DNA of 63,197 nucleotides from an uncultured Candidatus Peribacteria bacterium (GTDB lineage: Bacteria; Patescibacteriota; Gracilibacteria; Peribacterales; Peribacteraceae). The position numbers and the translations under genes were made by a program. Positions 11,110 through 62,276 of the stretch are shown in pieces. The stretch covers positions 1-63,197 of the forward strand of contig CAZLFU010000001.1 in assembly GCA_964558895.1 (NCBI GenBank). Direction: 5' to 3'. Below the pieces are notes generated by a model, which saw nothing but the letters and a program-made list of their open reading frames with translations, was not told where the DNA came from and did no database searches. Each line of letters opens with the position of its first letter. The first letter of the stretch is position 1.

Positions 11110-11117
11110 ATGAAATA

Positions 11118-13231: not shown

Positions 13232-13243
13232 AAAATTGAGGGA

Positions 13244-13645: not shown

Positions 13646-13679
13646 ATTATTAAAAGATTGTTATAAATATGTCAAGTTT

Positions 13680-14012
13680 ATGGATAAATCCGATATTGAA
13701 GGCATATTAGAACGGGCCTATGAGTTTATTGAGGCCAATTCGGTCAGGGGTCATTCCACAGTGGATGATGTCATGATGGTCTCTCCTCATACTCATTCGC
13801 TCGATTCTGTACTGGCCTATATCTATCAGCAAAGAGCGGAAGTGGGTGATCAAATCACTCAGTTGCTCGAAACACGAATATTGGATCTGCGTAATGAAAT
13901 AGACATATTAGCCTTTTTATACCAAGCAGACGAGGATTCTTTGGCACGTGCTCATAAAGCCAAGCAGGATATAGCAGAAACTATTAGAGCGCATTTCCAC
14001 AAAACGACATGA
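13680..14012 (+). CDS. Hypothetical helical protein (110 aa)
   Basis: ATG at 13680 avoids overlap with speH. ATGA overlap with the next gene. No family recognised. Confidence 0.4.
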   Translation: MDKSDIEGILERAYEFIEANSVRGHSTVDDVMMVSPHTHSLDSVLAYIYQQRAEVGDQITQLLETRILDLRNEIDILAFLYQADEDSLARAHKAKQDIAETIRAHFHKTT

Positions 14013-18406: not shown

Positions 18407-18442
18407 ATCTAAATTCTCGCTATGTCCAACACAGCCGGAATG

Positions 18443-20236: not shown

Positions 20237-20465
20237 TTGTTTGCTTTAGAAAGATTTTATAATCATTGATTTCTATCAGATCTGCCGACCAAAGAAAGGT
20301 AAGCAAATCAAAATATCTTTTGATATTTAATTTTTTATTCCTCTCACTCAATTCCTGAAAAAGACTTTCAATATCATGCACCCTTTGTTTCAGCGCAGCA
20401 ATTGCCCACCCTCCCATTACAAGAAGATTGTCGTTAATATTCTCATATTTGGTTGGATAAAGCAT
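20223..20465 (-). CDS. Small helical protein, candidate ABC-3C 'middle component'
   Basis: 80 aa. Overlaps the ATPase gene by 14 nt and lies 2 nt after the upstream gene. The position matches the 3-gene architecture. Confidence 0.4.
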   Translation of the reverse strand: MLYPTKYENINDNLLVMGGWAIAALKQRVHDIESLFQELSERNKKLNIKRYFDLLTFLWSADLIEINDYKIFLKQTNVPA

Positions 20466-20467
20466 AG

Positions 20468-21061
20468 TTAGAAAAGTTGAGGATTTTGAGAATTTGCTCT
20501 TTCCGTTTCAGTTGCAGTCTTCTTGCCTATGTCACACTTCTCAAACACCAACAAGATGATCGCAATGCAAATATACAGAGCCTTTGAATTACCTCGATGA
20601 GTTTCTGGGAGATAATGTTTTGCCAAATCAACGATATGGTTTGCATCTTCCATTTTGTGATCACAACTTTCACTGTTGCAAAGAGATCTATATTCCCTTT
20701 GGACATCGAATACGAATCCAGTGACCACTTCTGGTTCTTTATCTCCTAATAAAACTTCGATTTCATTTTTATGTATCCATACCTTGCGAAACATAAGCTT
20801 AACATCCGTGGCTGCATTCGCAGTAAAATTTAATTCGATCTTCTCTTTTAAATCTCGCAGATAATCCGTGCCTGTCTGCATTGTTGAATCTTCAGGCGTA
20901 ACAGTTTGATTGGCAAAAATATGTTCCAGTATTTCAACGACTAATATTCTATCCGCTTCCTCTGTCTTTGCTTCCTCTGAATAATTCAAATTAACAGTGC
21001 TTCCACCATCTGCTTGAACTTGTATGGATTTGTTGCCGGCAGATTGATTCTGATCACTCAT
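20468..21061 (-). CDS. Candidate effector component of the ABC-3C-like operon (197 aa, no recognised domain)
   Basis: Operon position. The N-terminal 'QNQSAGNKSIQVQA' motif is shared with the upstream small TM protein. Confidence 0.35.
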   Translation of the reverse strand: MSDQNQSAGNKSIQVQADGGSTVNLNYSEEAKTEEADRILVVEILEHIFANQTVTPEDSTMQTGTDYLRDLKEKIELNFTANAATDVKLMFRKVWIHKNEIEVLLGDKEPEVVTGFVFDVQREYRSLCNSESCDHKMEDANHIVDLAKHYLPETHRGNSKALYICIAIILLVFEKCDIGKKTATETERANSQNPQLF

Positions 21062-21261
21062 GAATTTCCTCCGAGATGGATTTTTGAGTCATTTTGAGCT
21101 TGATACTGCTTCGATCCATTTCCTGCTGATTGATTCTGCGTATGATGAATCTTTGTAATATTTTTATTAGTCACAAAAAACCCAATAACAGCCACGAGTG
21201 TCGTGACTAACAGGGAGATTAATTCAGTAAGTGCGGGGTTGGCGTTTAGGTATTCAAGCAT
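21058..21261 (-). CDS. Small single-pass membrane protein (67 aa)
   Basis: TM helix 'LISLLVTTLVAVIGFFV'. ATGA overlap with the next gene. First gene of the 4-gene operon. Confidence 0.45.
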   Translation of the reverse strand: MLEYLNANPALTELISLLVTTLVAVIGFFVTNKNITKIHHTQNQSAGNGSKQYQAQNDSKIHLGGNS

Positions 21262-21471
21262 GGGCGCGAGTTTACCCTTTTTATATCCGCAGTTGTACTA
21301 GAAATTTGCTACCCCTTGCAGAATATCGCCACTGCACAAGTAACCAATGCCTTGGGAGGCTTTTGGATATACCCCAGACGCATCTTTGCTTCTTGAATGA
21401 CAAAGGGTGCATCGCGAAGATTCGGATACACCACAGGTCGTTTATGCAGACCGAAGCCCTGACAAATAATG

Positions 21472-21741
21472 CTACTTATTTGCCAGTATCCATTGTTGGG
21501 CTTTGTTCGCCCACGTTAGCGGCAGTTTCACTTTTGCCAGTTCTGCGCCGTTCCCAATGATCTTCAACATGCCTTTGCCCCATCCTAAACCGTCTACGGA
21601 TACTGTCGTAACATCTTTCAATGGCACACGAAAATTGTGGCTGTATACATCCTTAAATTCCAAGAAGCCGTTTTCGATGATCAATGTCTTGCCGCCGAGT
21701 AAGCCGCCAACGCGGTACTTTTTCTTTTCACTGTTTGCCAT
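21472..21741 (-). CDS. Bacterial PH-domain-like small protein (89 aa)
   Basis: 'KTLIIENGFLEFKD...VPLKDVTTVSVDG...GMLKIIGNGAELAKVKL' resembles the bPH/YokE-like beta-sandwich + helix pattern. Tentative. Confidence 0.4.
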   Translation of the reverse strand: MANSEKKKYRVGGLLGGKTLIIENGFLEFKDVYSHNFRVPLKDVTTVSVDGLGWGKGMLKIIGNGAELAKVKLPLTWANKAQQWILANK

Positions 21742-21782
21742 GGAAAGAGGGGGGAAGAGGCAGAACAGGTGGTATCGCCAAA

Positions 21783-21912
21783 GCGGGTATCCGACCTGGT
21801 AGCCTCAACATCGTTGCCCCGAAGAGCTAGACAGTGAGCAGGTGGATACCCGCTACGACCGTCTAGGAGCGCATAAATGCGCCCACGGAGCTTAAATAAC
21901 GATGGAGGCTAC
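21783..21912 (-). ncRNA. Candidate structured RNA or DNA element with crossing (pseudoknot-type) helices
   Basis: Helix gcgggtatcc (21783-92) / ggatacccgc (21844-53). Helix gtagcctc..atcgtt (21799-815) / aacgat.gaggctac (21898-912). Helix ctagac (21827-32) / gtctag (21861-66). C(UUCG)G-type hairpin on the minus strand (21816-27). G-U pairs favour the minus strand. Confidence 0.3.
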
Positions 21913-22049
21913 GGATGCATTATATGTTTTTACGGGTAAAAGTACACAAATGAGGTTTTTCAGTGCTTGGAATCCGCGAAATAGAAATAAGGATTAAGGT
22001 TTTAAATAAGCCAAATCTTTCAAAAATTGCATGAAATACCGCGGATAAA

Positions 22050-23969: not shown

Positions 23970-25502
23970 ATGAAACATGTCCAATCCTTCACCATTGGCT
24001 ACATCCGAAAGTCCACGGACACCGAGGACAAACAAGTGCGTTCATTGGAAGACCAGGAAAAACTCGTGCGGGAACAATATGAAAGTATGCCGCCAGAAGA
24101 AAAATTATTTCCGCTGAAAATAATGCTGGAATCAAGAAGTGCCTACCATCCTGGTAGACCGGTGTTTAATGAGATAATAGAAATGGCGGATAGAAAACAG
24201 GTTCATCGCATTATGGTTCTTGATCCAACACGACTTTCCCGCAATATGGAAGATGCTGGAAAGCTCATACAGAAATTAGCCGACGGTAAAATCCAAGACA
24301 TTCTTACCGCCAGCGGAAAGACTTATTGTCGAAGCGATACAGGGCAACTCCTGATGCTCATGCTTGAAACGACAATGGGCTGGAAAGATAGTGCCGACAA
24401 AGGAGCGCGAGTAAAAATTGGCATGAGGCAGAAAGCAAAAGAAGGCGGTTCAACCGGTCCTGCGCCCATTGGTTACAGGAACGTTGGAATGACCAAAGGG
24501 AAGAAATGGCTAGAAATTGACCCCGACACAGGACCCAAAGTGAAGAGTTTGTTTCTTCTGGCATCCACTTCTGCCTATTCATTGTCTGCTCTTTGTGTAG
24601 AAGCAAAGAAAATCGGTTTACGGACAAAGCCCACAAGGAAGCACATACATGGATTGCCAATCAAGCAAAGCACCATGCATCAAGTACTTCGGAATCCAAC
24701 CTATAAGGCGCTTAAAGTGTATCAAGGTGAAAGGTGTCAGGCATCTCATGCCCCCTTGGTGGAAACCGAAGTATGGGAGCGTGTGCAGATTATTCTTTCG
24801 GGACGCAGAACCAACACATGCAGATCGAAAGATGAATTGAAGCGCGAATTGTTCCTCCTTGCGGGATGCACTCGCTGCGGCAAGTGTAAGACTCACACGA
24901 TGAGTCCCGAAGGACCCAAGAAGGGGAAGTACATTTACTATTCCTGCAAGAATCGTAATTCACATTGCCGGAACTCCATTGAGCAGACCGTTCTCATGGA
25001 TCAGTTCCATGAAAAGCTCTCTCTATTGCAGGTGGAAGATGAGGATATGCCTTTCATGCGAGAGACGATGAAGAAAGACCATGAGCTGTATTACAACAAC
25101 TTCCAGGGTAAGCGCGAAGCCCTGGAGCGTGAGTATGCGCAGAACGAAAAGGACATTGGTGATATTTTCGCCCAGAGAGAGGATGCCCGTAAAATGGGCG
25201 TCCTCGATACGATAGATGCCAAACTGGTTACTCTGAAAGCAAAGAAAGAAGAGATACAGAACGCCTTAAATGAACTGCATGACACCAGCAATGACTGGAT
25301 TAATCATGTTTTGAGATGCTTCGAACTCGTGAAATTGGCTCAAGAAGCCATAAAGTATGGGTCTCCCGTTACCAGGAGCGCAATCATCAAATCGCTCGGC
25401 TCGAACTTCTATGTATGTGACGGGAAGCTAGTCTGTGATTGGGTTTCTCCCTTCCGACAGAAGGCAGAAAGTGAGGGTCGTACAATATGGCTCCCCCGGT
25501 AG
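23970..25502 (+). CDS. Large serine recombinase (integrase)
   Basis: 'IGYIRKSTDTEDKQVRSLEDQ' catalytic Ser region; 'RIMVLDPTRLSRN'; recombinase domain; Zn-ribbon 'CTRCGKC...YYSCKNRNSHC'; coiled-coil region. The last 15 nt overlap tRNA-Asn. Confidence 0.9.
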   Translation: MKHVQSFTIGYIRKSTDTEDKQVRSLEDQEKLVREQYESMPPEEKLFPLKIMLESRSAYHPGRPVFNEIIEMADRKQVHRIMVLDPTRLSRNMEDAGKLIQKLADGKIQDILTASGKTYCRSDTGQLLMLMLETTMGWKDSADKGARVKIGMRQKAKEGGSTGPAPIGYRNVGMTKGKKWLEIDPDTGPKVKSLFLLASTSAYSLSALCVEAKKIGLRTKPTRKHIHGLPIKQSTMHQVLRNPTYKALKVYQGERCQASHAPLVETEVWERVQIILSGRRTNTCRSKDELKRELFLLAGCTRCGKCKTHTMSPEGPKKGKYIYYSCKNRNSHCRNSIEQTVLMDQFHEKLSLLQVEDEDMPFMRETMKKDHELYYNNFQGKREALEREYAQNEKDIGDIFAQREDARKMGVLDTIDAKLVTLKAKKEEIQNALNELHDTSNDWINHVLRCFELVKLAQEAIKYGSPVTRSAIIKSLGSNFYVCDGKLVCDWVSPFRQKAESEGRTIWLPR

Positions 25503-25562
25503 GATTCGAACCTACGACCCAGCGGTTAACAGCCGCTTGCTCTACCACTGAGCTACAGGGGA
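25488..25562 (-). tRNA. tRNA-Asn (anticodon GTT), CCA encoded
   Basis: The reverse complement folds as a cloverleaf: acceptor TCCCCTG/CGGGGGA, D arm GCTC-AGTGGTA-GAGC, anticodon loop CTGTTAA, T arm GTAGG-TTCGAAT-CCTAC, then G-CCA. Length 75 nt. Confidence 0.9.
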
Positions 25563-31920: not shown

Positions 31921-33747
31921 TCATTTCTTTTCTTGTGCTACCTCTATTTCTTCTGGTCCACCTTCTACTACTGCTTTGATTCTTCGCACGCCAGAAGAAG
32001 AACTCTCTTCTTTGAGGATTTTAAAGGAACCTAACATGCCGGTACGGGCAACATGTGGGCCGCCGCAAATTTCTTTACTGAATGCATTTGAGCCCTCTCC
32101 CATAGAGTAGACCTTTACCTCTTCTGCGTAACGGTCATCAAAGACACCGATAGCCCCTTCTTCTTTTGCCTGCTCTACTGTTGCCATGTGGTAGGAGATA
32201 GGGAGGTCTTTTTCTATTGCAGAGTTTACGAGTCTTTCTACCTCCGCAATCTGTTCTGATGTCATTTTATCATCGTGAGAGAAGTCGAAACGGAGACGTT
32301 CTGTAGTTATGTTTGAGCCCTTCTGGTAGACGTGATCCCCCAATACATTTCGCAGAGATGCATTGAGAAGATGTGTAGCAGTATGCAACTTTGTTGTTTC
32401 TCCAGAATGATCAGCGAGCCCTCCTGCAAAACGTTTCTCTGCACCTTGACGAGATTTCTCCTGATGTTCCTCAAATGCTTTTTGAAATCCAGCTTCGTCT
32501 ACAATGCATCCTCTTTCCGCTGCGATATCTTTGGTAACCTCTAGTGGAAAGCCATACGTATCGTACAAATGAAAGGCAGTGATACCATCAATCACTGTTG
32601 TCTTGAGAGTTGCAATAGTCTTCTCAAATTGTTTTAGCCCTTCCTGTAGCGTTTTTCCGAACTGTTGCTCTTCGTGCGAGAGAACGTCGGAAATATGTTT
32701 TTTCTTCTGGAGAAGATGTCCATACGTGTGTCCATACTGCTCTATGATGGTGCTAGCAACACTCGCACAGAACATACCAGTGTGTTCTATTCCTAGCTTA
32801 CGAGCAGATCGAATGGCTCTACGAATAAGTCGTCGTAGAACATATCCTTGGTCTACATTGGAAGGCTGAATACCATCACCAATAATGAATACTGCTGCAC
32901 GGAGGTGATCGGTAATGATTCGCGCATCTCCCATCATCTTTGCTTTACCAGATTCTGTCATGGCAGAGAGCGCTAGTGTTGCCTGTACAATAGGTTGCAA
33001 TCGATCTGTTTCGTAGACTGTCTCAACTCCCTGTAACACTTTGGCTACTCGCTCTAGCCCCATGCCAGTGTCCACATTTTGTTGCGCCAAAGGTATAAAC
33101 GATCCATCTTCTTTTTTGTTGTACTGCATAAACACATCATTCCAGATTTCTAGCCAATCATCTTTGTGTGTTTCGGGGTTTCCTACAGGTTCACCTTTGC
33201 CTATCCAATAAAACATCTCTGTATCTGGACCACAGGGCCCAGTTTGGCCTGCTGGCCCCCACCAGTTATCTTTTTTGGGAAGGAAGCCGATACGATCAGA
33301 ACTCACACCATGACTCATCCAGTAGCCCGAAGCTTCTGTGTCTTGCGGCGCATCGTCATCTCCACGAAAGCACGTAAATGCCAGATGATCTTTCGGAATT
33401 TTGAGAATTTCCGTGAGAAATTCGAAGCTCATCGCGATCGCTTCTTTTTTGAAGTAATCACCCAAGCTCCAGTTTCCAAGCATTTCAAACATAGTAAGGT
33501 GGCTCGCATCTCCAACTTCGTCGATATCCTGTGTTCGCACGCAGCGCTGTACATTTGTGAGTCTGGTTCCTGCAGGATGTGTTTCTCCTAAGAGATACGG
33601 AACAAGTGGATGCATACCAGCAGTGGTAAAGAGCACCGTAGGGTCATTCTCTGGGATGAGTGATGCTCCAGGAATCACCGCGTGGCCTTTGCTCTGGAAA
33701 AAATCCAAATAGGCTTGCCGAATCTCATCTGTTGTCATTGGCTTCAT
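31921..33747 (-). CDS. alaS: Alanine--tRNA ligase, short form (608 aa)
   Basis: 'DEIRQAYLDFFQSKGHAVIPGASLIPENDPTVLFTTAGMHPLVPYLLG'. Editing-domain motifs 'HTATHLL' and 'CGGPHV'. Ends soon after the editing domain. Confidence 0.9.
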   Translation of the reverse strand: MKPMTTDEIRQAYLDFFQSKGHAVIPGASLIPENDPTVLFTTAGMHPLVPYLLGETHPAGTRLTNVQRCVRTQDIDEVGDASHLTMFEMLGNWSLGDYFKKEAIAMSFEFLTEILKIPKDHLAFTCFRGDDDAPQDTEASGYWMSHGVSSDRIGFLPKKDNWWGPAGQTGPCGPDTEMFYWIGKGEPVGNPETHKDDWLEIWNDVFMQYNKKEDGSFIPLAQQNVDTGMGLERVAKVLQGVETVYETDRLQPIVQATLALSAMTESGKAKMMGDARIITDHLRAAVFIIGDGIQPSNVDQGYVLRRLIRRAIRSARKLGIEHTGMFCASVASTIIEQYGHTYGHLLQKKKHISDVLSHEEQQFGKTLQEGLKQFEKTIATLKTTVIDGITAFHLYDTYGFPLEVTKDIAAERGCIVDEAGFQKAFEEHQEKSRQGAEKRFAGGLADHSGETTKLHTATHLLNASLRNVLGDHVYQKGSNITTERLRFDFSHDDKMTSEQIAEVERLVNSAIEKDLPISYHMATVEQAKEEGAIGVFDDRYAEEVKVYSMGEGSNAFSKEICGGPHVARTGMLGSFKILKEESSSSGVRRIKAVVEGGPEEIEVAQEKK

Positions 33748-36647: not shown

Positions 36648-37095
36648 GGGGATGACAGGTATCGACAGCGTGAATCTAGGTATTGATCGCCCTGCACCAG
36701 ACACTTTGTGTCGATGCTGGGCAAGCTTCTGTTCGGGATGGCAACGGTTCCCGATACCCACTTGTTGCACCAACAATTGCAAACACTGCAATGAATGCTT
36801 TCCGTAACGCTGCTGCTAGAGGACAGGAACTCGCAAGAGGATTTGTTCTTCAGCCAGCTATGGTAGCTTAGTTCGCCCTTGCGCGAACACGTCTCTCCTT
36901 TGATCCTCGCTAAGAGGATGAGGCGTCACTAGCGAGGTGGGAATACACTTGATGTGATGTATTCCGTCATACAGCATCAACCCTCTCTTTTGTTCTTCGT
37001 CCGCTTCTTATAAAAGAGAGTATCGAAACGGACATGACAGTATGAGCACAGTGTCTACACGTTGGACCCGGGTTCAAATCCCGGCATCTCCACCA
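36648..37095 (+). ncRNA. ssrA: tmRNA (transfer-messenger RNA)
   Basis: 5' GGGGATGACAGGTATCGACAGCG. 3' GGACCCGGGTTCAAATCCCGGCATCTCCACCA (T arm CCGGG-TTCAAAT-CCCGG). Acceptor GGGGATG/CATCTCC has one G-U pair. Internal tag frame ends ...LQPAMVA-TAG at 36869-36871. Confidence 0.85.
36781..37095 (+). repeat. 315-bp direct repeat, copy 1 (3' part of the functional tmRNA)
   Basis: Identical by eye, base for base, to 44100-44414. Confidence 0.9.
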
Positions 37096-51376: not shown

Positions 51377-54300
51377 TTACTTCTTCTCAAACGCAATCAC
51401 GACTTTTCGCCCATCCAAATCTACTTCGGTCTTCTCCCCTTTATTAGCTCCCAATTGAGATTTGGTTTCCTGTGTAATCATCTCTTCGTATTCTGCAAGT
51501 ACATCATCTGCACCCTCGATGGTCAGGAGGACTGTATCGGTAAATTGGAATCCGCGCTCTTTTCGCAAACGTTGAATAGATCGAATGATATCTCTCGCTA
51601 TCCCCTCTGTTTCCAAGGTTTGCGAAATTTCTGTATCTAGACTCACTACAATGCCACGATCTGCAGCAATGTCCTGCCCTTCTTTTCCTCGGTACATCAC
51701 CTGTGCTTCTTCCGGGCTCAAGACTTCATCCAGAATCAAAATGGAGCCGTCGTCCTGTACGGTATAGTTACCAGCCTTTCCTGCTTGAATAATTTCCTGC
51801 ACTCGTGCACCCAGGCGAGGACCAACCTTGCGTGCGTCTACCTGCATAATCGCTTCTGCAAGCGTTTCTGGGTCATTGGAAAATTCAATATCCTTCACAT
51901 TGAGTTCCTGCATAAGTACTTGCAAATCTTCTTCTCCAAATCGAACCTGGCTTAACTGACTTGGGGGAATAGCCACAACTGCTTTTTGTAATGGCTGCCT
52001 TATTTTCACTGTTTTCTCCGAGCGGATTTTATTACCCAGAGACACGATCAATCTTTGTAAGCGTGTCTTCTCCAGCAAAGCATGTTCTTCTGCATTTAGC
52101 TCTCGCGTTGCAGGCCAGTCGGTAAAGTGAATGGAACCATGTTCATCTGGAACCAAGTTGAGATAAATTCCCTCTGTAATGTAGGGGCAGAAGGGAGCGA
52201 GTAACTGCGAAATAGTGAGGAGCACGTCGTACAATGTATGCAGTGCATCCTGTCTTTCCTCAGGATTTTCTTTTCCTGCAAAGCGTCTCCTCGAAAGACG
52301 CACGTACCAGTTGGTGAGTGCATCGATCGTTTCGTGTAGTTCGTTGCAAGTGGCAGAGAGGTCGTACGCATCTAGCTCCTTTGTCATACGATTCACTAAA
52401 TCTTGTACCTCAGCGCGAATCCACAAATCAAGCGGGTGTGTAGAATGCTTCCTATTATCTATTGGCTCAAAAGAGCAGGCGTTTGCATACGTTACGAAGA
52501 AGCTATACGTATTCCATAGTGGCAGCAAAACTGCTCGCAGGGATTCCTCTACCAACTTTTCCGAAATCCGTAGATCTTCTGCACGCACCGCAGGGGAACT
52601 CATAAGGGTAAAGCGGATGGCATCTGCACCGTACTTATTGGCAAGCTCCATAGGATCTGGATAATTCTTGAGGCGCTTACTCATCTTCTTACCATCTTCT
52701 GCCAGTACGATTCCATTGACAACACAGTGCTGAAAAGGGGATTCATCGAAGAGTGCAGCCCCCAAGACTGTAAGCGTATAGAACCAACCACGCGTTTGAT
52801 CTGTTCCTTCTGCAATGAAATCCGCAGGGAACCCCTCTGGCTTGGTTAAACCTTTGTGCTTGAGTTCAAAAGGAAAATGCTGCTGTGCATAAGGCATGGA
52901 GCCAGATTCAAACCAGCAGTCGAAGACTTCTGGAATGCGTTTAAAGTGAGGATGTACTATGCACTCGTAGATTGTTGCATTTTCTACAGCTGCATCCACT
53001 CCTTCCCTGTACGACAAATTTTCTAGGAGCGTGCGCATTGCTTGTACATATCCACCATGTCCAACGATGAGTACTTTTTTCCCTGCATATTCTCTTAAGA
53101 GTGTATTGAGAAAATTCTGTGTACGTTGCAAAAATGCAGAGACACTTTCACCTTTTGGCGGAATGACGGGATGGAACGCAAAGCTCTTCATGGGAATATT
53201 CGTAAGTTTATTTTCCACTTCTGAATGTAACTTCCCCTGCCACTGACCGAAGTTTCTCTCTCGTAGTATTTCCAGCTGTTTTGCATCTGTAAGCCCGAGT
53301 GATTTGGTAATAATCTCTGCTGTTTGAACTGTTCGATCCAAATCTGAACAAAGGCAGACATCAAACTCTTTCCCTTTTAGTTTTGCAGCAGCTTTTGCTG
53401 CTTGCTCTTTTCCTACATCAGTCAACTGAGGAGACGTTTCTTGACCTTGAATGCGACCATCTTTATTCCATGTACTCTCTCCATGTCGTACAAAGGTCAC
53501 TTCTACACTTTTCTTCGACTGTGAACTTGGGAAGACGATATCATCGATACTATGTTTATGAAGATCCATCTGCGCTCGTTTATCGTGATCCCAAAAGAAC
53601 GTGTAGGGAGTAGCATAGTATGGGTATGGCTGATGCGATAATTTAACAGGGTCTTCCTGTGTAAAGAAGTGGCGAATGTTTTGGAGAGGGTCTGCATGGG
53701 TGACTACCACCACGTGTTCACTACGATGCTTGGGCAGAATTTCCTCCATAAAATTCGACATGCGCTTGTAAACGTTTTCCCATGTTTCCATTCCTTCAAA
53801 ATGATAGATGCTTTCTGGCTGGTTTTTGGCAAGCTTATGAGCGCGACGTGCTTTGAGGAATGTAAGATCATTAAAGTCCACACTCTTTCCTTCGTGCTTA
53901 CCAAATTCCACTTCTCGCAATCTCTCGTCGATGACAATCTCTGCGCCTGTCGCTTTCGCGATAGCTTCTGCAGTTTGCAGTGTTCGTGCCATCGGTGAAC
54001 AGTAGATGATATCAACCTTCTCATTCTCAAACATGGTGGTAGCGTGTTCTGCCTGCTCTCTTCCGCGATCAGTCAAATTTGTCCCTGGGAGTTCTCCTTG
54101 ATAAATGGGAATCAGATTTCCTTCGCTCTCGCCATGTCGCAAAGCTGTCAGTTTGGTGAAGCGAATTTTTTTCTGTTGCATGAGGGCATCTCTGCTCCCA
54201 AGAATCGTGATGTCTCCAGAGTCTTCCTCTCGCCAGAGAGGGAGGGGAGTACCCCAGTACCTATTGCGGGAGATGGCCCAATCGCGTGCGCCTTCCAACC

Positions 54301-55741
54301 AGTTTCCAAATCGTCCATCGCGTAGATGTGCAGGTACCCATTCTGTTTTGCTATTGGCATCTAGTAACTTCTGCTTAATCTGCTCTACCTTCACAAACCA
54401 AGAGCTGGTTGCATAGTTGAGCAGAGGGGAGTCGCAACGCCAACAGTGTGGATAACTGTGCTTATATTTCTGTGTCGAAAACACTGCGTTCTGTTTATGC
54501 AAGTACTCGATAAGTTTTCGATCGGTTTTCGAAGGGTCATCTGCAGGTTTCACATCCATGCCTGCGAAGTCGGTCACTGCGCTTATAAATTTCCCCTCCA
54601 TTGTTACGTGCTGTAGGAGTTCCACTTGTTGTGCTTTTCCTATTTGGAAGTCGTCCTCGCCAAACCCCGGAGCAATATGCACAACCCCTGTTCCTTCTGT
54701 TGTTGTCACAAAATCACCTTCCACAATGGTAAAGCATTGTGAGTACTTGTTTTCAAAGTATGGAAAGAGTGGCTTGTAGGTTCTACCAAGAAGATCTTTC
54801 GCATGCATCGTTTCGACGACCTCATGCTCTTTTCCTTTGAATACAGTTTCGACCAAGTCCTTTGCAAGGATATAGTAAGCATTTTCTGATGAGACTTTGA
54901 CGTAAGGAATATGTTTTCCTACTGCAAGAAACAGATTGCCCGGCAGTGTCCATGGTGTTGTAGTCCAAGCAAGAATAAACGTATTTGGGGTATCAGAAAG
55001 TGCAAATTTTGCTATAACAGATTGATCGGTTATATCGATATATCCTTGAGTCACTTCAAAATTACTGAGAGGCGTAACACAGCGTGGGCAGATGTGCATC
55101 GGCTTGTGCCCTTCGTATACCAATCCTTTTTTGTGAAGTTGCTCAAAAACCCACCAGATACTTTCCATATAGTCGGGGTCCATCGTGCGGTAATCCCAGT
55201 CCATATCTACCCATCTTCCCATGCGCTCCACAATCATTTGCCATTCTTTGGCATAGCGTTGGACAGAGCCTCTACAGAGCTCGTTAAATGCAGCAATTCC
55301 CATGGCTTCTATTTCCTGCTTGTTTTGAATGGAGTGTTCCTTCTCTACAAGATTTTCAATAGGGAGACCATGGCAGTCCCACCCAAAGCGTCTTTCCACA
55401 TACTTTCCCTTCATGGTTTGATAACGCGGAATTACATCCTTGATAGTTCCTGCGAGCAGATGTCCGTAATGAGGGAGGCCTGTGGCAAAGGGGGGACCGT
55501 CATAAAACGTAAAGGTCGAAGGTCGAAGGTCGAAGGCTCCCCCTTGTGCGGATGACTGAGGGCTCTTCGACTTTTGACTGATTCCCGGAGTGTTCAAAGC
55601 ATCCGCATTTCCATCATTCTGCTTTCTTCTGTGCATAGACCTCTTGAAGGTATCTTCTTCCTTCCAGTACTGCAAAATTCCTTCTTCCAACTTGGGAAGA
55701 GATTGTTTAGGGTCGACAGGGTCGAAGGAAGGTTTTGCCAT
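51377..55741 (-). CDS. ileS: Isoleucine--tRNA ligase (eukaryote-like type) carrying two inserted histidine-phosphatase (PGAM-like) domains
   Basis: '[20 protein letters not shown]' (HIGH), '[16 protein letters not shown]', '[21 protein letters not shown]', 'KMSKRLKN' (KMSKS). Inserts carry 'LRHGESEGN...VVVVTHADP' and 'VRHGESTWN...LIVGHGGY'. Start at ATG 55741. Confidence 0.9.
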   Translation of the reverse strand: [1454 protein letters not shown]

Positions 55742-55832
55742 GCAGAGCAAGTGTAGGGAATTTTCTTCTTTTAAACTACTTTTAATGGCAAAAAGTACAA
55801 CCAACAATTCCTTAAAAATTGCAGAAAATTTT

Positions 55833-57077
55833 TTACTCTGTTAGCTTTCCAGGAAAACTTGCTATTTTTTTTAAAAATGGAATTACACGATAATCGATAC
55901 TACCTACACTTACACATTCGTTACGAGTATGCTCGCCTGTTCCGAGTGGTGGAAAAACAATTGCTGGGATGTGTTTTGCGTGAGCTATAATTGCCTCATC
56001 TGCGACTGGCTTTGCTGCTTTTATGGCAACAGGCTGATTGTATACTTCACCTGCTAACATGTGTGCATTTCTAACAAAAGGGCTGTCTTCGGTTTCCAGC
56101 CACGGTTTAGTAAAGGGTATCTCTGAATGTCTCTTTTCAAATTTTACAGTGAAGTTATCGTCGCCCAATGCACTGCGAATTGCTTCTCGTACCATATGCT
56201 GAATTTCTGTTTTTGTTAATTCAGGATCTGTATAGAAAGCATTAATTTGAAATCTCCCTTCCGTAACAACACTTAGTGCTTGTGGATTTATTGATCCCCA
56301 TCTTCCAGGAACTAATATTGGTTTTCCTAGTTTTGCATCATAAGGGTGCTCGGAAAATCTAAATCCATTAAGTGCAAGTTTAGCTTTGGCATCTCTTGTC
56401 CATGATAAGCCATCAAGCATTTCGTGTGTCACTCCTCCGGAGTGTGTTGATGGTCCTTCTATGGTAACATCTAATCCAACGCGACCTTGCCTTCCAATAT
56501 ATATTGCTGGAGGGTCTTCCAATTGACCCTTCACTGGAATTTCGGTTGATACAACACATGATGCCCCATCTAGAAGATCATTATCTGGATGCAAAGCTGC
56601 ATGAGTACCTTCAGATTGATTTTCTTCTCCCCATACCAATAGAATTCTTATTTTTCTGTGAGTAGCAACTTGCAATTCGCGTGCAGCTTTGAGATAAGCA
56701 GTGACTCCACCAAGCATATCGTATGCTCCAAGGCCGTACACAATATCTGAATTTCTTTCATCCACGATTAATTCATGCGGATTGCGTTTAAAACCTTTAT
56801 ATTCTTCCGGAGGAGGAACTGTATCAAAATGACCATGGAAGATAACTAGTTCTTCTTCTCCGTCTCCAAAATCAATTGTTATATTCCTTGGTCTAGGATC
56901 TTGATCTGCAAAGCTGGCCCCAGTTGGAAACTCGTGAATTTTGAGGTCACCATGAATCCATCTGTCATTCATTTGCTTAATGACGTTCACCATGTTTACT
57001 TGCCCCTGTTGTGTAAATGATTTCACGGCTATCAATTCACCCAGCACATCCTGTGTTGATGGAAATTCAGTAGACAT
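55833..57077 (-). CDS. M20-family metallopeptidase/deacylase (ArgE/DapE-like)
   Basis: 'LVIFHGHFDTVPPP', 'LLVWGEENQSEG'. Confidence 0.7.
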   Translation of the reverse strand: MSTEFPSTQDVLGELIAVKSFTQQGQVNMVNVIKQMNDRWIHGDLKIHEFPTGASFADQDPRPRNITIDFGDGEEELVIFHGHFDTVPPPEEYKGFKRNPHELIVDERNSDIVYGLGAYDMLGGVTAYLKAARELQVATHRKIRILLVWGEENQSEGTHAALHPDNDLLDGASCVVSTEIPVKGQLEDPPAIYIGRQGRVGLDVTIEGPSTHSGGVTHEMLDGLSWTRDAKAKLALNGFRFSEHPYDAKLGKPILVPGRWGSINPQALSVVTEGRFQINAFYTDPELTKTEIQHMVREAIRSALGDDNFTVKFEKRHSEIPFTKPWLETEDSPFVRNAHMLAGEVYNQPVAIKAAKPVADEAIIAHAKHIPAIVFPPLGTGEHTRNECVSVGSIDYRVIPFLKKIASFPGKLTE

Positions 57078-57282
57078 AACTCATAGACGCGAAGATAAGA
57101 TATAATCTTCTTTGAAAAAACTTCTTCCCACAAGAAAAATCTGAGTGATATGTTGTACTGAGTGTATTAATACTATTATTAACAAAAAAGAAAAATTACA
57201 TTGTAAAGCGTATTTTCCATTCAAATTTCATGTTTTAATGTTTGACAAATAAGTCAAAAAAGAGAGAATATTTGTCCGTTTC

Positions 57283-57660
57283 ATGTTTTTTATGATTCAA
57301 AGACGTGAGGTAGATCATGGGCGCAATTCAGATGGTACCAGGTCTGAAGACTTAGTTGGAGAAGAGCTATTATCTACCATGCTTAGTAGAATTGATGGGC
57401 AAGACTTTATTGTGAGTGGAAGTGTATCAACTGCGTTTGACGTTGTTACTGAGGTAGAGAAGAAGATGGGTGATGTAGGATTTGGTGCGTTTCTAGCAGA
57501 AAAAGGGATTTCAAGAGAGCAATTAGTAACATCGTTAGCACATGATATTGCCGAAAATGTTGAAGCTGAAGGGCGTATTCCAACGCAAAGACTCAAATCA
57601 GTCATTAGTGCGATTGCGGGAAGGTTAAAAGACATTTTTGGTAAAGCCGCGATAGTTTGA
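57283..57660 (+). CDS. Hypothetical protein (125 aa)
   Basis: ORF only. Confidence 0.35.
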   Translation: MFFMIQRREVDHGRNSDGTRSEDLVGEELLSTMLSRIDGQDFIVSGSVSTAFDVVTEVEKKMGDVGFGAFLAEKGISREQLVTSLAHDIAENVEAEGRIPTQRLKSVISAIAGRLKDIFGKAAIV

Positions 57661-57796
57661 ATGCTAACACAATGTGAATTAATGGTGGTTCAATGACAAT
57701 TTTCTAGAACATTGATTAAGGGTTTTTTTGTTGCGTAGCTATAAACAAGAGTTATGATACTCTCGGACGATTTTTATAGTTTTCCCAGATTGTAGT

Positions 57797-58927
57797 TTGA
57801 CGGGCGAAAAACCATTTGAAGGGCATGAACCCCCTCAAGAAAGCGCTGAAAAGCGACTTTCTCAGGGCGGCGAACCTTTGCAAACATCTAGTGAAACCAG
57901 TGGATTAAGAGAAAAGGTTACTATTAAAGTCGCTCAAGTTCTTGAAAAAGAAAATAGAACAAGTAATTTCAAAGAATCAGATTTTGAGTTGATTACTCAA
58001 CATACTGAAAGTAGGGAATTAACACCAGATGATTGGGAAGCCGTTGGTGAACTTTATCAGAAGAGTGAAATGTCTACTGAAGTGTTTCAACATCTGGCAA
58101 ATAAAGATTATATAAGTGCGGAGCAAGAAGCAGCAAAGGGAGGAATGATAGATAAATGGATTTCTAATCCAAGAGAATTGCAAGCACTTAGAAATAGAAA
58201 TCCAGCGTATATTTCTTCTGGAGAAGAAATGTTGCGTTTTCTGAAAAGAGAATACAAGCCGGAATCGTCTGAGGCAGGAAAAGGTCGAGTGGCAGATTTT
58301 CGTATGTGGGGACAATTTGATAGAGATAAAAAGTTACGATCAGCAGCAGCCGCGTTTTTACCACCAAAAGATTCTGATTTACTAGAACGTCACACCGAGC
58401 AGATTCAGAAGCTTTTTACTGGTCAGTATACATATGATAGGCATGGAATTCAGTTTTACCCATCTGGCAAAAATTCTTTTTCGTATGCCGATGAACATCA
58501 AAAAAGAGCTCCAACAACAGCAGAATTTTATTTAATTCTACAGGATGTAAAAGGATCTGGAGCATTTATTATTCAAAAGATGCTGCAGGATCTGAAGGAT
58601 GAGGAGATGCAGATTACCGATTGGTACCTTTTGCGGTTTGGAGCATTGAAAGTACTAGAGCCGGAAGAGGATACGCGTTTAGCAAATTCCCTCGAAAATG
58701 ATGCAAGCAAAAGATTTTTTAAACACAGAGGGTTTAGAGATGTGGGAGTGTTTTCTTATAAGGATCAAATAGCAGCAAGAGAAGTTGGTAGTAGTGTTGT
58801 AATTGTAGAACCTGAATGGAAAGTTATGTGGAGTTCAAATGATGAGTTTGCATCTGGTAATGCTACCGAAGTCGCAGAAATATATAGAAAGGCAGAAGAG
58901 CATAAACCTCGAAGGGCTAGATCCTAG
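57797..58927 (+). CDS. Hypothetical protein (376 aa; TTG start in the track)
   Basis: Long ORF, no family recognised. Confidence 0.45.
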   Translation: MTGEKPFEGHEPPQESAEKRLSQGGEPLQTSSETSGLREKVTIKVAQVLEKENRTSNFKESDFELITQHTESRELTPDDWEAVGELYQKSEMSTEVFQHLANKDYISAEQEAAKGGMIDKWISNPRELQALRNRNPAYISSGEEMLRFLKREYKPESSEAGKGRVADFRMWGQFDRDKKLRSAAAAFLPPKDSDLLERHTEQIQKLFTGQYTYDRHGIQFYPSGKNSFSYADEHQKRAPTTAEFYLILQDVKGSGAFIIQKMLQDLKDEEMQITDWYLLRFGALKVLEPEEDTRLANSLENDASKRFFKHRGFRDVGVFSYKDQIAAREVGSSVVIVEPEWKVMWSSNDEFASGNATEVAEIYRKAEEHKPRRARS

Positions 58928-58935
58928 CTTGGAGT

Positions 58936-61698
58936 TTATTTTTTTGAAAATAACATTGGCAGCATTGCCCCAATACTTACTAGTACAGCTGCAATTAATG
59001 TTAGTGGACTAATAGGTGCCAATTCAGGAATGATAAGTACTTGACCAAGCATTGTCGAGAAGATAATGAGGAATGAGTATCTCAATACAAAATCAATTTG
59101 TTTATATGAGAGAAGATAGTAATACACATAATATGGTAATCCTGCAAAGACTATACTAAAAAGAATCATATCTGCGATAACGTAAGATTCATACGTATTG
59201 AGTGTTGAAAATGGTAGAAATGGTAGTGTCAGAATGGCGCTTAAAATAGAAAGCAGTAAAAAATACTGTGCAGAGCGGGAAGCTACATGCTGTTGTCTTT
59301 TGTATTGTTCACTCACAACAGAGAATGCAGAAAATGCTACAACAGCCAATAGCGTATAAACCATTCCCTTCAATGACCAACTTGGAGAAAATAGTGTAAT
59401 AATTGATGCTCCCAATATAAGCAAACCCCATGTTACTAGAAGAATGTTTTTGCGGTGCTTATTGACAATAGAAGTCAGGAGAACACCTCCTGTAGTCATT
59501 GGAATAGAGTAATGAATGGGGTAGGTTGATTGTAATGCTTCGTACGTGAAGAATGCGATGCATGCTAACAGAAAGACAGTAATAAGCAGTGAGCGATCAA
59601 TAATGGGTAAACGTATTTCAGGTAGATCATCGTGTGCTTTTTTCCAAAGAACCAGTACAGCACTTATGCAAGTGAGTGATAAGAAGCGGATGATGGTTAA
59701 GTCGAGTGCTGCAATATCATATGCATGAATAAGTTTGTATCCCACAGCTGGATCGAACCCCCATAAAACAAGAAGGAAAGCAATTCCTGTGCTGTGCCAA
59801 AGCTTCGACGAAGCATTACCAATATATACGTTTGTAGCTCCTATTGCCTCTAAAGATTTTTTTAATGCCTTTTGCTCATCCATAGTAAGCGGATGTTTTA
59901 TGGTTATATTCCCATGCATCATTGCAAATGGTTTAAATTTGAGAGAGCGTATATTTATTTTAAATTTCTTATACAATTGAATCGTATGGGTTACTGTGTC
60001 AATATCGTTTATATCCAATGAAAATTTAATGAGACTTTGTGTTTTATTCATGTCTTTGGTTTCTCTTTTTATTTCTCCAAACAGTAGTTCATAAGCATCA
60101 GTTGGCTTTAAGTGACCATCTGCTATGGCTTCATAGATCGTTTGCAAAGATTTATAACTTGTTCCAATTAGTTTTTCTTCAAGTTTTTTCTGGTTAAATT
60201 CTTCTATAAATCCTCTACGCTTTTCTGTCATTACTTCTTGAAAAATCTCTTTACCTATTGAATATTTTGTAGTGTCTGATTGATTTGAAAGTGCCTTACG
60301 AATTGTGGCGGTAGCTAATCCAGTATTAACGAAATTTAACCACGATCGATCTACAGTTTCATCTTTGTTAAATTCTGCGCGGATAGATTCTGCGTTACGC
60401 AATTGAGTATTGAATCCAACTTTTTTGCCATTAACTGTAATGGTAAGAATGTTAAGGGCCTTGTCTCCAAAACAGTAAAAAGCACCATCGAGAGCAGTGG
60501 CATCTTTTGGAATGAGAATGGCGAGATCTCCTGCACCATGAACAATAATAGAATCTCCCAAAATATCACTTTTCAAGCTTTCCCAAAATTCTCCACTGTG
60601 TTCAGCTGTATCTTCAGATAAAGAAGAAATACGCCCTGCCCATGGTAGATAATTTTGCAATCCCATTGATGTATTATCAAAGCAGAGCGAGGCAATTCCC
60701 ATATGGTGATACTCATGCATTCCTTCTGTGCGTATTTTACATCTGATACGTGTGCCATCCTCCATAATCATTGTTGTGTGTATTGCTTGATATCCGTTAA
60801 TTTGAGGTGAGTTGATAAAGTCTTGAAAAGAGAGAGTTTCTCGTTGCCACTGTTGATGTAGCATTCCTAAAACAAGGTAACAGCTTGGTATATCTTTGCA
60901 GATAAATACAATGGTATACTCCGAGAGACCAGTGATTGCAGAACCGCCTGCCTGTAGTTGTAGTTTTACCTTGTCCCATATTTTTGGTTCATAGAGCATT
61001 TTGATATCGCCCCATTGGTTGGGGTGTGTAACAGAGAATACTTCGTGGATTTTTTGAATGATTCCAATCACTTTTTTTTCATTCGCTTTTCGTAATTCGG
61101 AAAGCTGTGTAAATAACTCTGGTTCCAGAGTTTGCAAGCAGAGTCCTTCCATTTCGTCTCGTAAGTCCTGCATCGAAAGTCGATCTGCAATTTTTACAAA
61201 CACTTCCATTGTCTCTTGTGCATATGTTAATTGCCTCTCGGGTGACATATACTCAATGGTTTGCATGTTATGCAACCTATCTACCAATTTAATGATCATG
61301 ATGCGCACATCCTTTTCCATCTGTGTAAAAATTTTGCGAAGAGTTTCTATTTCCTCTTCCAGTGTTACATTGTCATCGATGTATTTCGATTTCAATTTGG
61401 TAACACCATCGATCAACATGGCAACATCCGAATTAAACTGCGCATCAATTTCTTTCAGTGTCAGGTTTGTATCCTCGATAGTATCGTGCAGAAGTGCTGC
61501 GATCAGGGTATCTGGATCTGCACCCATGTCTGCAAGCATATGTGCCACCGCAATAGGATGAGTGAAGTAAGGATCGCCCGACTTTCTTTTTTGATCTTTA
61601 TGGGATACTTTTCCAAGTTCAAACGCCTGTTCTACACGTGCTTGATCCTCTGTAGAGAGGTGCCGAATATGCGATCGAAACTCATTCCAGCGCATCAT
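58936..61698 (-). CDS. rel: RelA/SpoT homologue (HD hydrolase + synthetase + TGS + ACT-like) fused to a C-terminal ~10-TM membrane domain
   Basis: 'HPIAVAHMLADMG...LLHDTIEDT' (HD), 'GYQAIHTTMIMEDGTRIRCKIRTEGMHEYHHMGIAS' (synthetase), 'VNGKKVGFNTQLRNAESI' (TGS-like). The last ~294 aa are hydrophobic helices (EamA/DMT-like). Start at ATG 61698. Confidence 0.8.
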   Translation of the reverse strand: MMRWNEFRSHIRHLSTEDQARVEQAFELGKVSHKDQKRKSGDPYFTHPIAVAHMLADMGADPDTLIAALLHDTIEDTNLTLKEIDAQFNSDVAMLIDGVTKLKSKYIDDNVTLEEEIETLRKIFTQMEKDVRIMIIKLVDRLHNMQTIEYMSPERQLTYAQETMEVFVKIADRLSMQDLRDEMEGLCLQTLEPELFTQLSELRKANEKKVIGIIQKIHEVFSVTHPNQWGDIKMLYEPKIWDKVKLQLQAGGSAITGLSEYTIVFICKDIPSCYLVLGMLHQQWQRETLSFQDFINSPQINGYQAIHTTMIMEDGTRIRCKIRTEGMHEYHHMGIASLCFDNTSMGLQNYLPWAGRISSLSEDTAEHSGEFWESLKSDILGDSIIVHGAGDLAILIPKDATALDGAFYCFGDKALNILTITVNGKKVGFNTQLRNAESIRAEFNKDETVDRSWLNFVNTGLATATIRKALSNQSDTTKYSIGKEIFQEVMTEKRRGFIEEFNQKKLEEKLIGTSYKSLQTIYEAIADGHLKPTDAYELLFGEIKRETKDMNKTQSLIKFSLDINDIDTVTHTIQLYKKFKINIRSLKFKPFAMMHGNITIKHPLTMDEQKALKKSLEAIGATNVYIGNASSKLWHSTGIAFLLVLWGFDPAVGYKLIHAYDIAALDLTIIRFLSLTCISAVLVLWKKAHDDLPEIRLPIIDRSLLITVFLLACIAFFTYEALQSTYPIHYSIPMTTGGVLLTSIVNKHRKNILLVTWGLLILGASIITLFSPSWSLKGMVYTLLAVVAFSAFSVVSEQYKRQQHVASRSAQYFLLLSILSAILTLPFLPFSTLNTYESYVIADMILFSIVFAGLPYYVYYYLLSYKQIDFVLRYSFLIIFSTMLGQVLIIPELAPISPLTLIAAVLVSIGAMLPMLFSKK

Positions 61699-61799
61699 AG
61701 TGACTGTAAATTTTACACGTCGCTTTGCCAAAAGAACAGGAGTTTTGTGACTTATTTTGCCTATTTAAGCCAAAACTACTTATTCATTGTTCAAAAAAA

Positions 61800-62276
61800 T
61801 TACAACGCCAACAGCAGATACTTCTTCACATTGGCAAAAATATCTTTTTCTTCATCCAGTGCCTCTATCTCTTCCTTCGTAAACCATCTCAAGTCACTAC
61901 TTTCTTCTTCTGCCAATTGCAGCATTTGAGATTCGTCGAGTAGTTTTGCAAGAAAGAGAAAATCCATATGCTGGTGTGCTGGCTCTCCTCGTACCTCGGA
62001 TGCAGGGATATTCTCCAGGAGCATGGCAAAAGGCTTGGTAAGCATCATGCCTTCGCTTGGATCCGTTGCAAACAAATCCTTCTGGTCTTCGCCTATAATT
62101 TCGACGTCCAAACCTGTTTCCTCTTTACATTCCCTGCATGCTGCCTCTTGTGGTGTTTCATCTGGATCAATGTGTCCACCTGGTGGCATCCATCTCTCCA
62201 ATCGCTTATGCCATAAAAGCAATGTTCTCTTTTGAGAATCGATAATGAATGCTGTTGCGGTAAAGTGTTTCATCAT
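61800..62276 (-). CDS. Nudix hydrolase
   Basis: Nudix box 'GGHIDPDETPQEAACRECKEETG'. Confidence 0.8.
   Translation of the reverse strand: MMKHFTATAFIIDSQKRTLLLWHKRLERWMPPGGHIDPDETPQEAACRECKEETGLDVEIIGEDQKDLFATDPSEGMMLTKPFAMLLENIPASEVRGEPAHQHMDFLFLAKLLDESQMLQLAEEESSDLRWFTKEEIEALDEEKDIFANVKKYLLLAL

Follow-up and report, generated by a model that had tools for sequence, protein, structure and literature searches.

Two histidine-phosphatase domains within the isoleucyl-tRNA synthetase of a Candidatus Peribacteria bacterium

The ileS gene and its two inserted domains

The window analysed here is a 63,197-nucleotide stretch of DNA from an uncultured Candidatus Peribacteria bacterium (GenBank assembly GCA_964558895.1, contig CAZLFU010000001.1, positions 1–63,197). 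The gene of interest, ileS, lies on the minus strand at 51377..55741 and encodes an isoleucyl-tRNA synthetase (IleRS) of 1454 amino acids (aa), followed by a stop codon. An earlier reading of the sequence alone had proposed that two histidine-phosphatase domains are inserted, at separate points, into this essential enzyme. The open frame runs through 51377..55807 without interruption, its upstream limit being a TTG at 55807; all aa positions given below follow the 1454-aa protein read from the ATG at 55741. A public NCBI protein (P0001) is 100% identical to the window IleRS over its full length. The uninterrupted frame and the exact public match bear out the proposal that the gene is not an annotation fusion.

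Outside the two inserts, the protein has the features of a type-2 (eukaryote-like) IleRS. A Pfam scan returned tRNA-synt_1 (437 bits, split in two), His_Phos_1, Anticodon_1 and DUF5915, and the NCBIfam model TIGR00392 (ileS) matched the whole protein at 856.9 bits (cut-off 621.4), in two stretches separated by the inserts. The expected signatures were found along the length of the gene: (i) the HIGH signature, HYGH (aa 91–94; 55460..55471), which is invariant in homologue alignments, (ii) the signatures of the editing domain in connective peptide 1 (CP1), TTTPWTLPGN (aa 260–269) and GTGVVHIAPGFGEDD (aa 350–364), which lie within 54650..54964 and are conserved in homologues, and (iii) two motifs within 51380..52951, namely FDCWFESGS (aa 940–948), in the second half of the Rossmann fold, and KMSKR (aa 1019–1023; 52673-52687), which is conserved in homologues. 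This last stretch of the gene, 51380..52951, was assigned by Pfam, alignment and motifs to the end of CP3, the second Rossmann half, the anticodon-binding domain and the C-terminal DUF5915 domain.

Structural comparison points the same way. IleRS proteins of solved structure matched the window IleRS with E values of 1e-192 to 1e-236, and an AlphaFold2 model of aa 76–1270 (predicted local distance difference test, pLDDT, 87.9; predicted template-modelling score, pTM, 0.84) superposed on the yeast (7D5C), C. albicans (6LDK) and T. thermophilus (1ILE) enzymes with target-normalised template-modelling scores (TMt) of 0.78–0.85. The synthetase body is therefore modelled intact. A 52-sequence alignment was used as the input for structure prediction. 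Judged by its sequence, the window protein is a complete type-2 IleRS—with HIGH, KMSKS, CP1 editing, anticodon-binding and C-terminal domains intact—and is predicted to charge tRNA(Ile). Membership of more specialised families was not found: scores for MupA/MupB (NF000257 and NF000258; 717 and 662 against 1900) reflect plain type-2 similarity, the score for ileS_w_GNAT (NF040702) is 270.5 against 1999, and the window IleRS has no acetyltransferase match in Pfam. A low-complexity segment, RRKQNDGNADALNTPGISQKSKSPQSSAQGGAFDLRPS (aa 38–75; 55517-55630), connects the N-terminal helix to the first Rossmann strand; it varies among homologues and is poorly conserved.

The two inserts lie on either side of a native IleRS segment. 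The CP2-CP3 linker and the first part of CP3 (WAISRNRYWGTPLPLW...GSRDALMQQKKIRFTK; aa 488–530; 54152..54280) align with yeast IleRS residues 451–499 and extend as far as the first insertion site, S1. There begins the first His_Phos_1 domain, D1 (aa 531–723; 53573..54151; LRHGESEGN...VVVVTHADP). It is followed by the native CP3 hairpin (aa 724–746; 53504..53572), whose core motif, DLHKHSIDD, corresponds to the DLHR..ID motif of insert-free IleRS, and then by the second domain, D2, at site S2 (aa 747–930; 52952..53503; VRHGESTWN...LIVGHGGY). Both domains were assigned from profiles, conservation and fold. The coordinates proposed for the two domains in the sequence-only reading proved exact, and alignment confirms that the two insertion points flank the native segment, MDLHKHSIDDIVFPS (aa 725–739).

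The identity of the inserts was examined at the level of profiles, catalytic residues and predicted fold. The Pfam family His_Phos_1 (PF00300) matched at 275.7 bits in two stretches, against a gathering score of 21.7, and D1 and D2 searched singly matched histidine-phosphatase family models with E values of 1e-26 to 1e-33. Conservation was then read from the 120 best homologues, which are 54–67% identical to the window IleRS (its own database entry aside). In D1, residues R535, H536, R586, E610 and H682 are kept in 120/120 sequences; in D2, R752, H753, R803 and E828 are kept in 119/119, and H895 in 117/119. The Gly of the RHG motif is replaced by Ala in 51 of the 120 D1 sequences. Among 28 single-insert IleRS, which are only 35–46% identical to the first sequence of their alignment, the five catalytic positions show no variation. 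Both domains keep the catalytic set of the family, Arg-His (nucleophile)...Arg...Glu (proton donor)...His, and the claim that each has retained the RHG motif and the second His is upheld across homologues.

An AlphaFold2 model of aa 524–935 (D1-hairpin-D2) reached a mean pLDDT of 94.9 and a pTM of 0.91. The latter value means that D1 and D2 are predicted as one compact unit, and this unit is predicted to pack compactly on the synthetase body. The best Foldseek match of the model was PhoE (1H2E/1EBB; E 8e-15, TMt 0.77–0.81); PspA, Rv3214, TIGAR, CobC and a riboflavin-pathway phosphatase (9MMH, third by fold) were also matched, with an overall TMt of 0.62–0.81. By sequence, the best match in the PDB is the phosphoserine phosphatase PspA for D1 (4IJ5; E 1.4e-21) and PhoE for D2 (1EBB/1H2E; E 5e-18). 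Profile and fold searches thus establish two complete histidine-phosphatase domains and refute a different fold for the inserts, which the sequence-only reading had named as an outcome that would count against it. No other histidine-phosphatase domain was found in the 63-kb window.

Assignment of a substrate by family (dPGM, PspA, CobC, GpmB or SixA) was attempted and rejected, as all scores lie under the curated cut-offs. Scores for D1 and D2, respectively, are 34.9 and 62.7 for TIGR01258 (pgm_1; cut-off 81.7), 111.9 and 67.1 for NF038349 (dPGM_arch; cut-off 225), 107.8 and 91.2 for NF045917 (PspA; cut-off 350) and 91.0 and 113.3 for TIGR03162 (CobC; cut-off 162.9). The whole-protein scores for TIGR01258 (84.4) and TIGR03162 (193.6) are in each case the sum of two domains, and the PspA cut-off is not reached even though PspA 4IJ5 is the closest solved relative of D1. 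Since the scores fall under every curated equivalog cut-off, no substrate can be transferred from the known phosphatases. By these profiles, the inserts place the IleRS in histidine-phosphatase branch 1, and in no demonstrable substrate-defined phosphatase family.

In one respect the position of the inserts differs from that first proposed. They had been placed in the catalytic core; alignment to yeast IleRS locates them in the peripheral CP3 subdomain. Query aa 483–533 align with yeast residues 451–499, and query aa 932 onward with yeast residue 518 onward. Yeast CP3 comprises residues 459–526, and comes right after the CP2-3 linker (453ARDWNVSRNRYWG465) that lines the tRNA A76/reveromycin pocket (PMC7955072). 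D1 and D2 are therefore both inserted in CP3, outside the Rossmann core; by this alignment, a small peripheral connective-peptide subdomain hosts both phosphatases. Insert-free type-2 IleRS have ~55 residues in this region, often in the form of a zinc knuckle, CxxC ... DLHR..ID ... CxxC. Site S1 precedes the DLH hairpin, and site S2 follows it at the position of the second CxxC. The zinc-knuckle cysteines have been lost in the window IleRS, and the hairpin residues D726, L727, H728 and D733 are invariant in the 120 best homologues.

Conservation, distribution and origin of the inserts

All 120 best homologues are IleRS with PF00300, and those that are named come from Peregrinibacteria, Peribacteraceae or Ca. 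Peribacter riflensis. The D1-D2 layout is found in 116 of them, drawn from NCBI, JGI, ENA and Logan assemblies; three have the layout D1-D2-D2 (~1640 aa), and one has D1 only. An IleRS of identical layout is encoded by the closed 1.25-Mb genome of Ca. Peribacter riflensis (CP013064.1), where the neighbours of ileS are syntenic with those in the window: downstream are genes for holin-like and SLH proteins, and a RelA/SpoT gene is close by. The open frame, the exact public match, the independent assemblies and the closed genome led us to reject an assembly chimera or frameshift, both having been named beforehand as outcomes that would overturn the proposal.

An intein or spliced mobile element was rejected on separate grounds. 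At E values up to 0.01, the window IleRS has no Pfam match to Hint, intein or LAGLIDADG/homing-endonuclease families, and the junctions of the inserts (...IRFTKLTALRHG... and ...FFWDHDKRAQMDLHK...) are free of intein splice motifs and of splice-junction residues. G+C content is similar in D1 and the IleRS core; at third codon positions it is 0.46 in D1, 0.45–0.46 in the core and 0.33 in D2. As D2 is kept throughout the clade, its low value is no sign of recent acquisition. The window IleRS is a genuine, lineage-conserved, multifunctional enzyme.

The RelA/SpoT homologue of the window (931 aa; HD_4, RelA_SpoT and RIS domains) is encoded at 58936-61731 (-), two genes upstream of ileS. The closed genome of Ca. 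P. riflensis also has a RelA/SpoT gene by ileS (644 aa; locus L081, 5598-7532), with an orientation and intervening genes that differ from those of the window.

A survey of relatives indicates that the architecture, which had been judged highly unusual, is common. An exhaustive search with aa 491–990 as the query (E up to 1e-30) gave 131 clusters at 50% identity, most of which are IleRS of ~1150–1240 aa whose one phosphatase domain sits at S1. A profile made from the 28 single-insert IleRS recovered 120 further proteins, all with PF00300; the named ones include Wolfebacteria, Campbellbacteria, Niyogibacteria, Paceibacterota and Parcubacteria. Going by these searches, the two-phosphatase IleRS is the norm in Peregrinibacteria, and the one-domain form is widespread in Parcubacteria and across the Candidate Phyla Radiation (CPR).

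Relatives also differ in the number and position of their inserts, with up to three or four histidine-phosphatase domains per IleRS. Further layouts include (i) S2 only, in P0174 and P0131 (read by eye), (ii) S3, directly after FDCWFESG, in various relatives, and (iii) S4, between the catalytic and anticodon-binding domains, in Ca. Abawacabacteria and in many proteins labelled Gracilibacteria or Peregrinibacteria. S3 and S4 inserts were found in Gracilibacteria and Abawacabacteria. Sites were classed with regular expressions, which left many proteins unassigned, and by an alignment version that miscalls S2-only proteins such as P0174 as S1; the key cases were settled by eye.

Histidine phosphatases are not the only domains inserted into these synthetases. 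Among relatives, IleRS were found with GNAT, serine hydrolase, P-loop kinase, DUF559 endonuclease-like and IS200-type transposase domains; GNAT and histidine-phosphatase domains occur together in P0348, P0398 and P0409. In the IleRS P0457, two HAD_2 domains are present and histidine phosphatases are absent. The best family for the P-loop kinase insert is the Ser-tRNA(Sec) kinase PSTK (E 4e-10, weak and under the cut-off), and its best match in the PDB is the RNA-repair kinase Pnkp1 (E 7e-4, also weak). The multi-insert IleRS P0457, P0458, P0473, P0479, P0410, P0398, P0255 and P0348 are of Gracilibacteria/Peregrinibacteria type and reach 1750–1860 aa; some of the extra inserts in relatives lie within the CP1 editing region.

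The closest paralogue of IleRS, valyl-tRNA synthetase (ValRS), can carry the same kind of insert. A 1337-aa ValRS (L085 13319-15204 (+)) has His_Phos_1 right after WCISRQIWWGHQIPVW, at the CP3 position equivalent to S1, and the IleRS of the same genome (P0463) is insert-free. Phosphatase-bearing ValRS were found additionally at the metagenome loci L088, L089, L090 and L092, the last of which has two domains. Other insert-free ileS genes of relatives have directly behind them either a small gene of esterase type (Ser_hydrolase/PGAP1 matches) or a YbaK-type tRNA_edit deacylase gene (L084 9332-9841 (-); L087 9109-9585 (+)). Two other proteins, P0265 (413 aa) and P0239 (418 aa), are free-standing tandem pairs of histidine phosphatases; P0265 spans D1-linker-D2 at 30% identity, and the two may represent the D1-D2 pair in the form of independent proteins.

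Comparison of the domains with each other bears on their origin. BLASTP gives 33% identity between D1 and D2, the family-wide average being ~25%, and either is 22–37% identical to stand-alone or differently placed domains. A recent tandem duplication was accordingly rejected as the source of the pair, their mutual identity being no higher than that to unrelated family members; a genuine later duplication of D2 is seen in the three homologues of ~1640 aa. Within Peregrinibacteria, conservation is 62% for D1 and 44% for D2, and the S1 junctions lie at an identical place in Peregrinibacteria and Parcubacteria. The shared place of the junctions fits a single old insertion at S1, with S2 gained afterwards. 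In a neighbour-joining leaf order—used for its order only, and not as a tested phylogeny—S1-type and S4-type proteins are largely separate.

Several other features of the window were recorded. An alanyl-tRNA synthetase is encoded at 31921-33747 (-); at 608 aa (tRNA-synt_2c and tRNA_SAD) it is short, and its C-terminal domain was not detected. A tmRNA gene with tag peptide ANTAMNAFRNAAARGQELARGFVLQPAMVA lies at 36648-37095 (+), and a tRNA-Asn(GTT) gene at 25488-25562 (-). G+C content is low (0.37–0.41) at 8001-14000, 18001-22000 and 56001-62000, and 0.43–0.51 in the rest of the window; a DUF2326 protein is encoded within one of the low-G+C stretches, at 18443-20236.

A possible link between the phosphatases and aminoacylation

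From the intact catalytic sets we infer that each module is an active phosphomonoesterase, working via a phospho-histidine intermediate. Three patterns point to selection retaining phosphatase activity itself at the synthetase: insertion at no fewer than four IleRS sites (that is, at least four), the pair of HAD domains in one relative, and the ValRS inserts in CP3. We tentatively favour functional coupling of the phosphatases to the synthetase, while giving it somewhat less than an even chance.

Under such coupling, the phosphatases would act in cis with the class-Ia synthetase, stripping phosphate from a species that, left as it is, would obstruct the acceptor-end or adenylate site. Foremost among the candidate substrates would be a tRNA 3' end that is 2'/3'-phosphorylated or pyrophosphorylated. 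Such ends can result from nuclease damage or from toxSAS-type toxins, and removal of the phosphate would yield chargeable tRNA. One such species, tRNA with a pyrophosphorylated CCA end, is documented, and its aminoacylation is blocked (10.1101/2021.04.30.441581; PMC11559606). Also counted in favour of coupling are the place of CP3, straight after the linker at the A76 pocket, and the GNAT, serine hydrolase, P-loop kinase and deacylase or esterase-like functions that relatives have within or beside their ileS. Taken by itself, this tRNA-end version of the coupling is unlikely. Doubtful, too, is its broadest form, in which the IleRS and ValRS phosphatases would provide an unrecognised tRNA quality control, taking a 2'/3'-phosphate or a toxin-derived pyrophosphate off A76 in cis before charging, and would be the commonest piece of a class-Ia synthetase toolkit in the CPR (phosphatase, PSTK/PNK-like kinase, acetyltransferase and esterase).

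A number of observations weigh against coupling, and in particular against a tRNA-end substrate. Firstly, the nearest characterised relatives (PspA, PhoE, CobC, TIGAR, glucosyl-3-phosphoglycerate phosphatase and a riboflavin-pathway phosphatase) all act on small molecules, and the HAD domain of the P0457 type is phosphoglycolate-phosphatase/PpaX-like; we know of no member of the histidine-phosphatase superfamily that acts on RNA ends. Secondly, the presence of several divergent phosphatase domains in one protein suggests several small-molecule specificities rather than one job at the tRNA end. Thirdly, the inserted domains are not basic (median isoelectric point ~6.5); a basic surface was looked for as a sign of tRNA binding and was not seen, which is weak evidence against extensive RNA contact. 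Fourthly, site S4 is away from CP3, and the similarities of the kinase insert are too weak to reach curated cut-offs. Finally, these synthetases have accepted selfish-looking inserts (the DUF559 endonuclease-like and IS200-type transposase domains), and IleRS may simply be permissive to insertion.

The strongest alternative is that D1 and D2 are ordinary metabolic phosphatases, unrelated to aminoacylation, that have lodged in tolerant surface loops of an essential protein. A large, constitutively expressed host would, in a tiny genome, guarantee expression of its passengers and make their loss difficult; candidates include a phosphoserine, sugar-phosphate, phosphoglycerate or riboflavin-intermediate phosphatase. 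We regard this explanation as possible, and as nearly as likely as coupling to the synthetase. It draws on the metabolic character of the best sequence and structure matches (PspA for D1; PhoE, TIGAR and CobC for D2; 9MMH by fold), on the neutral to acidic nature of the domains, and on the tolerance of these IleRS for unrelated inserts, GNAT and kinase domains among them. The sequence divergence of D1 from D2, as great as that from unrelated family members, and the three or four domains of some relatives would likewise fit distinct specificities. Furthermore, the metabolism predicted for Ca. Peribacter riflensis includes synthesis of serine and riboflavin as well as lower glycolysis (PMC4736985), so its genome must at some point encode phosphatases or mutases of these types. 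Against this stands the manner of insertion. Simple hitch-hiking would sooner be expected to join phosphatases end to end with one protein or another; the pattern found is repeated insertion within loops of IleRS and ValRS, at four or more sites. The place of the histidine phosphatase is taken in one relative by a non-homologous phosphatase of the HAD type, and no per-domain score reaches the cut-off of any metabolic equivalog, PspA, dPGM_arch and CobC among them.

A second alternative, which we consider rather improbable, holds that the domains are ligand-sensing modules. They would bind, and perhaps slowly turn over, a phospho-metabolite or alarmone and tune IleRS through their rigid attachment to CP3, so that translation would be tied to metabolic state. 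Allostery is known to arise by the insertion of domains. In the models (pTM 0.91 and 0.84) D1 and D2 form a rigid unit attached to the synthetase, and they adjoin the linker that lines the A76 pocket. The RelA/SpoT gene near ileS, in the window and in Ca. P. riflensis, would be in keeping with a sensing role; yet its gene order and orientation differ between the two genomes, and its proximity may be coincidence. The strict conservation of the nucleophile His and the proton-donor Glu in every class examined points to turnover over binding alone. The changing number and position of the domains, and their replacement by HAD domains, are moreover hard to fit to one tuned allosteric path.

Less probable again is a defence against antibiotics in cis, by which the phosphatases, together with the GNAT and esterase domains of relatives, would inactivate at its target a natural inhibitor that is phosphorylated or that mimics isoleucyl-adenylate. 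The analogy is with the acetylation (MccE), cleavage (MccF) and phosphoramidase (HinT) reactions that act on microcin C-type compounds. GNAT, serine hydrolase and phosphatase-type enzymes belong to classes that detoxify aminoacyl-nucleotide antibiotics, all three are among the accessory domains of IleRS, and the superfamily includes SixA, a P-N-cleaving enzyme that is weakly matched here. However, histidine phosphatases act on terminal phosphomonoesters, and not on internal acyl-phosphoramidate linkages; to our knowledge there is no such inhibitor of IleRS; and ancient, near-universal retention over whole phyla is unlike the patchy occurrence of resistance traits. The weakest explanation, an artefact in the form of a chimera, an unseen frameshift or an intein-like element spliced from the mature IleRS, has practically no chance of being correct given the uninterrupted frame, the layout shared with 116/120 nearest homologues and a closed genome, the near-equal G+C of D1 and core, and the lack of intein families and splice motifs.

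The consequences differ with the outcome. In either case, an essential synthetase with one to four phosphatases, catalytically intact to judge from their residues, spans whole CPR phyla, a large share of bacterial diversity. Coupling to aminoacylation would give translation a novel type of repair or quality control at the level of its substrates. If the two activities are uncoupled, these proteins would represent an unusual housing of metabolic enzymes in minimal genomes, and pathway reconstructions would miss the enzymes hidden within 'IleRS'. These proteins lend themselves to expression and assay, which makes the question directly testable.

Comparison with known synthetases and phosphatases

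A literature search found no paper that describes a phosphatase module in IleRS or any other synthetase, in agreement with the sequence-only reading, and the Peribacteria genome paper does not mention a phosphatase-bearing IleRS. Nor was a curated family for such proteins found. Thousands of these sequences are held in databases under generic or automatic names, one JGI automatic label being 'isoleucyl-tRNA synthetase/bisphosphoglycerate-dependent phosphoglycerate mutase'. Accessory synthetase domains are already known as a kind (CP1 editing and the curated IleRS-GNAT family); synthetases rank with the most thoroughly investigated enzymes, and almost all of their known add-on domains bind tRNA, edit mischarged products or assemble complexes. 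The curated family ileS_w_GNAT (NF040702) is a precedent for an accessory enzyme domain in IleRS, though the window IleRS is without GNAT.

Set beside other type-2 IleRS (S. cerevisiae 7D5C/8WND, C. albicans 6LDK, T. thermophilus 1ILE and Priestia megaterium IleRS2 8C8U), the window protein has the same domain order and signatures, with a model TMt of 0.66–0.85. Shared elements are HYGH, KMSKR, the CP1 editing motifs, the DLH(K/R)..D hairpin in CP3 and the C-terminal DUF5915 domain. The window protein differs in its ~390 extra residues, which form the two phosphatases looped out of CP3, and, from many bacterial type-2 IleRS, in the absence of the CxxC zinc-knuckle cysteines of CP3.

The inserts themselves resemble short histidine phosphatases (PhoE/YhfR 1H2E/1EBB, PspA 4IJ5, CobC, Rv3214 and TIGAR) in fold (TMt 0.75–0.81), in catalytic residues and in length (~185–195 aa); the additional segments that true phosphoglycerate mutases have are absent. 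Those enzymes are free-standing and usually dimeric, whereas the window has two diverged copies inside one synthetase chain. A CobC-like phosphatase joined to a nucleic-acid enzyme is also found in the bifunctional RNase H/acid phosphatase (Rv2228c type, NF005567), to which the phosphatase match is 90–104 bits, under the cut-off of 326. The Rv2228c type is an end-to-end fusion to RNase HI, in contrast to the insertions described here.

The closest parallels to the favoured mechanism lie in systems that act on tRNA 3' ends. The CP1 editing domain is a hydrolytic domain that a connective peptide carries within the Rossmann fold and that acts in cis on the 3' end of tRNA, a design that coupled phosphatases would parallel. 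CP1 is universal in IleRS, ValRS and leucyl-tRNA synthetase and hydrolyses mischarged aminoacyl esters, while the window inserts have another fold, a phosphoryl-transfer chemistry, a position in CP3 and a lineage-restricted distribution. In the end healing carried out by T4 Pnkp, a P-loop kinase is combined with a HAD 3'-phosphatase; relatives of the window IleRS pair a phosphatase (histidine or HAD) with a PSTK/Pnkp1-like P-loop kinase. With T4 Pnkp and the hydrolases that reverse pyrophosphorylation of the tRNA CCA end by toxSAS, the window inserts would share a proposed class of substrate, the phosphorylated tRNA 3' end; the families differ and the similarities are weak, so that the likeness is one of possible function only.

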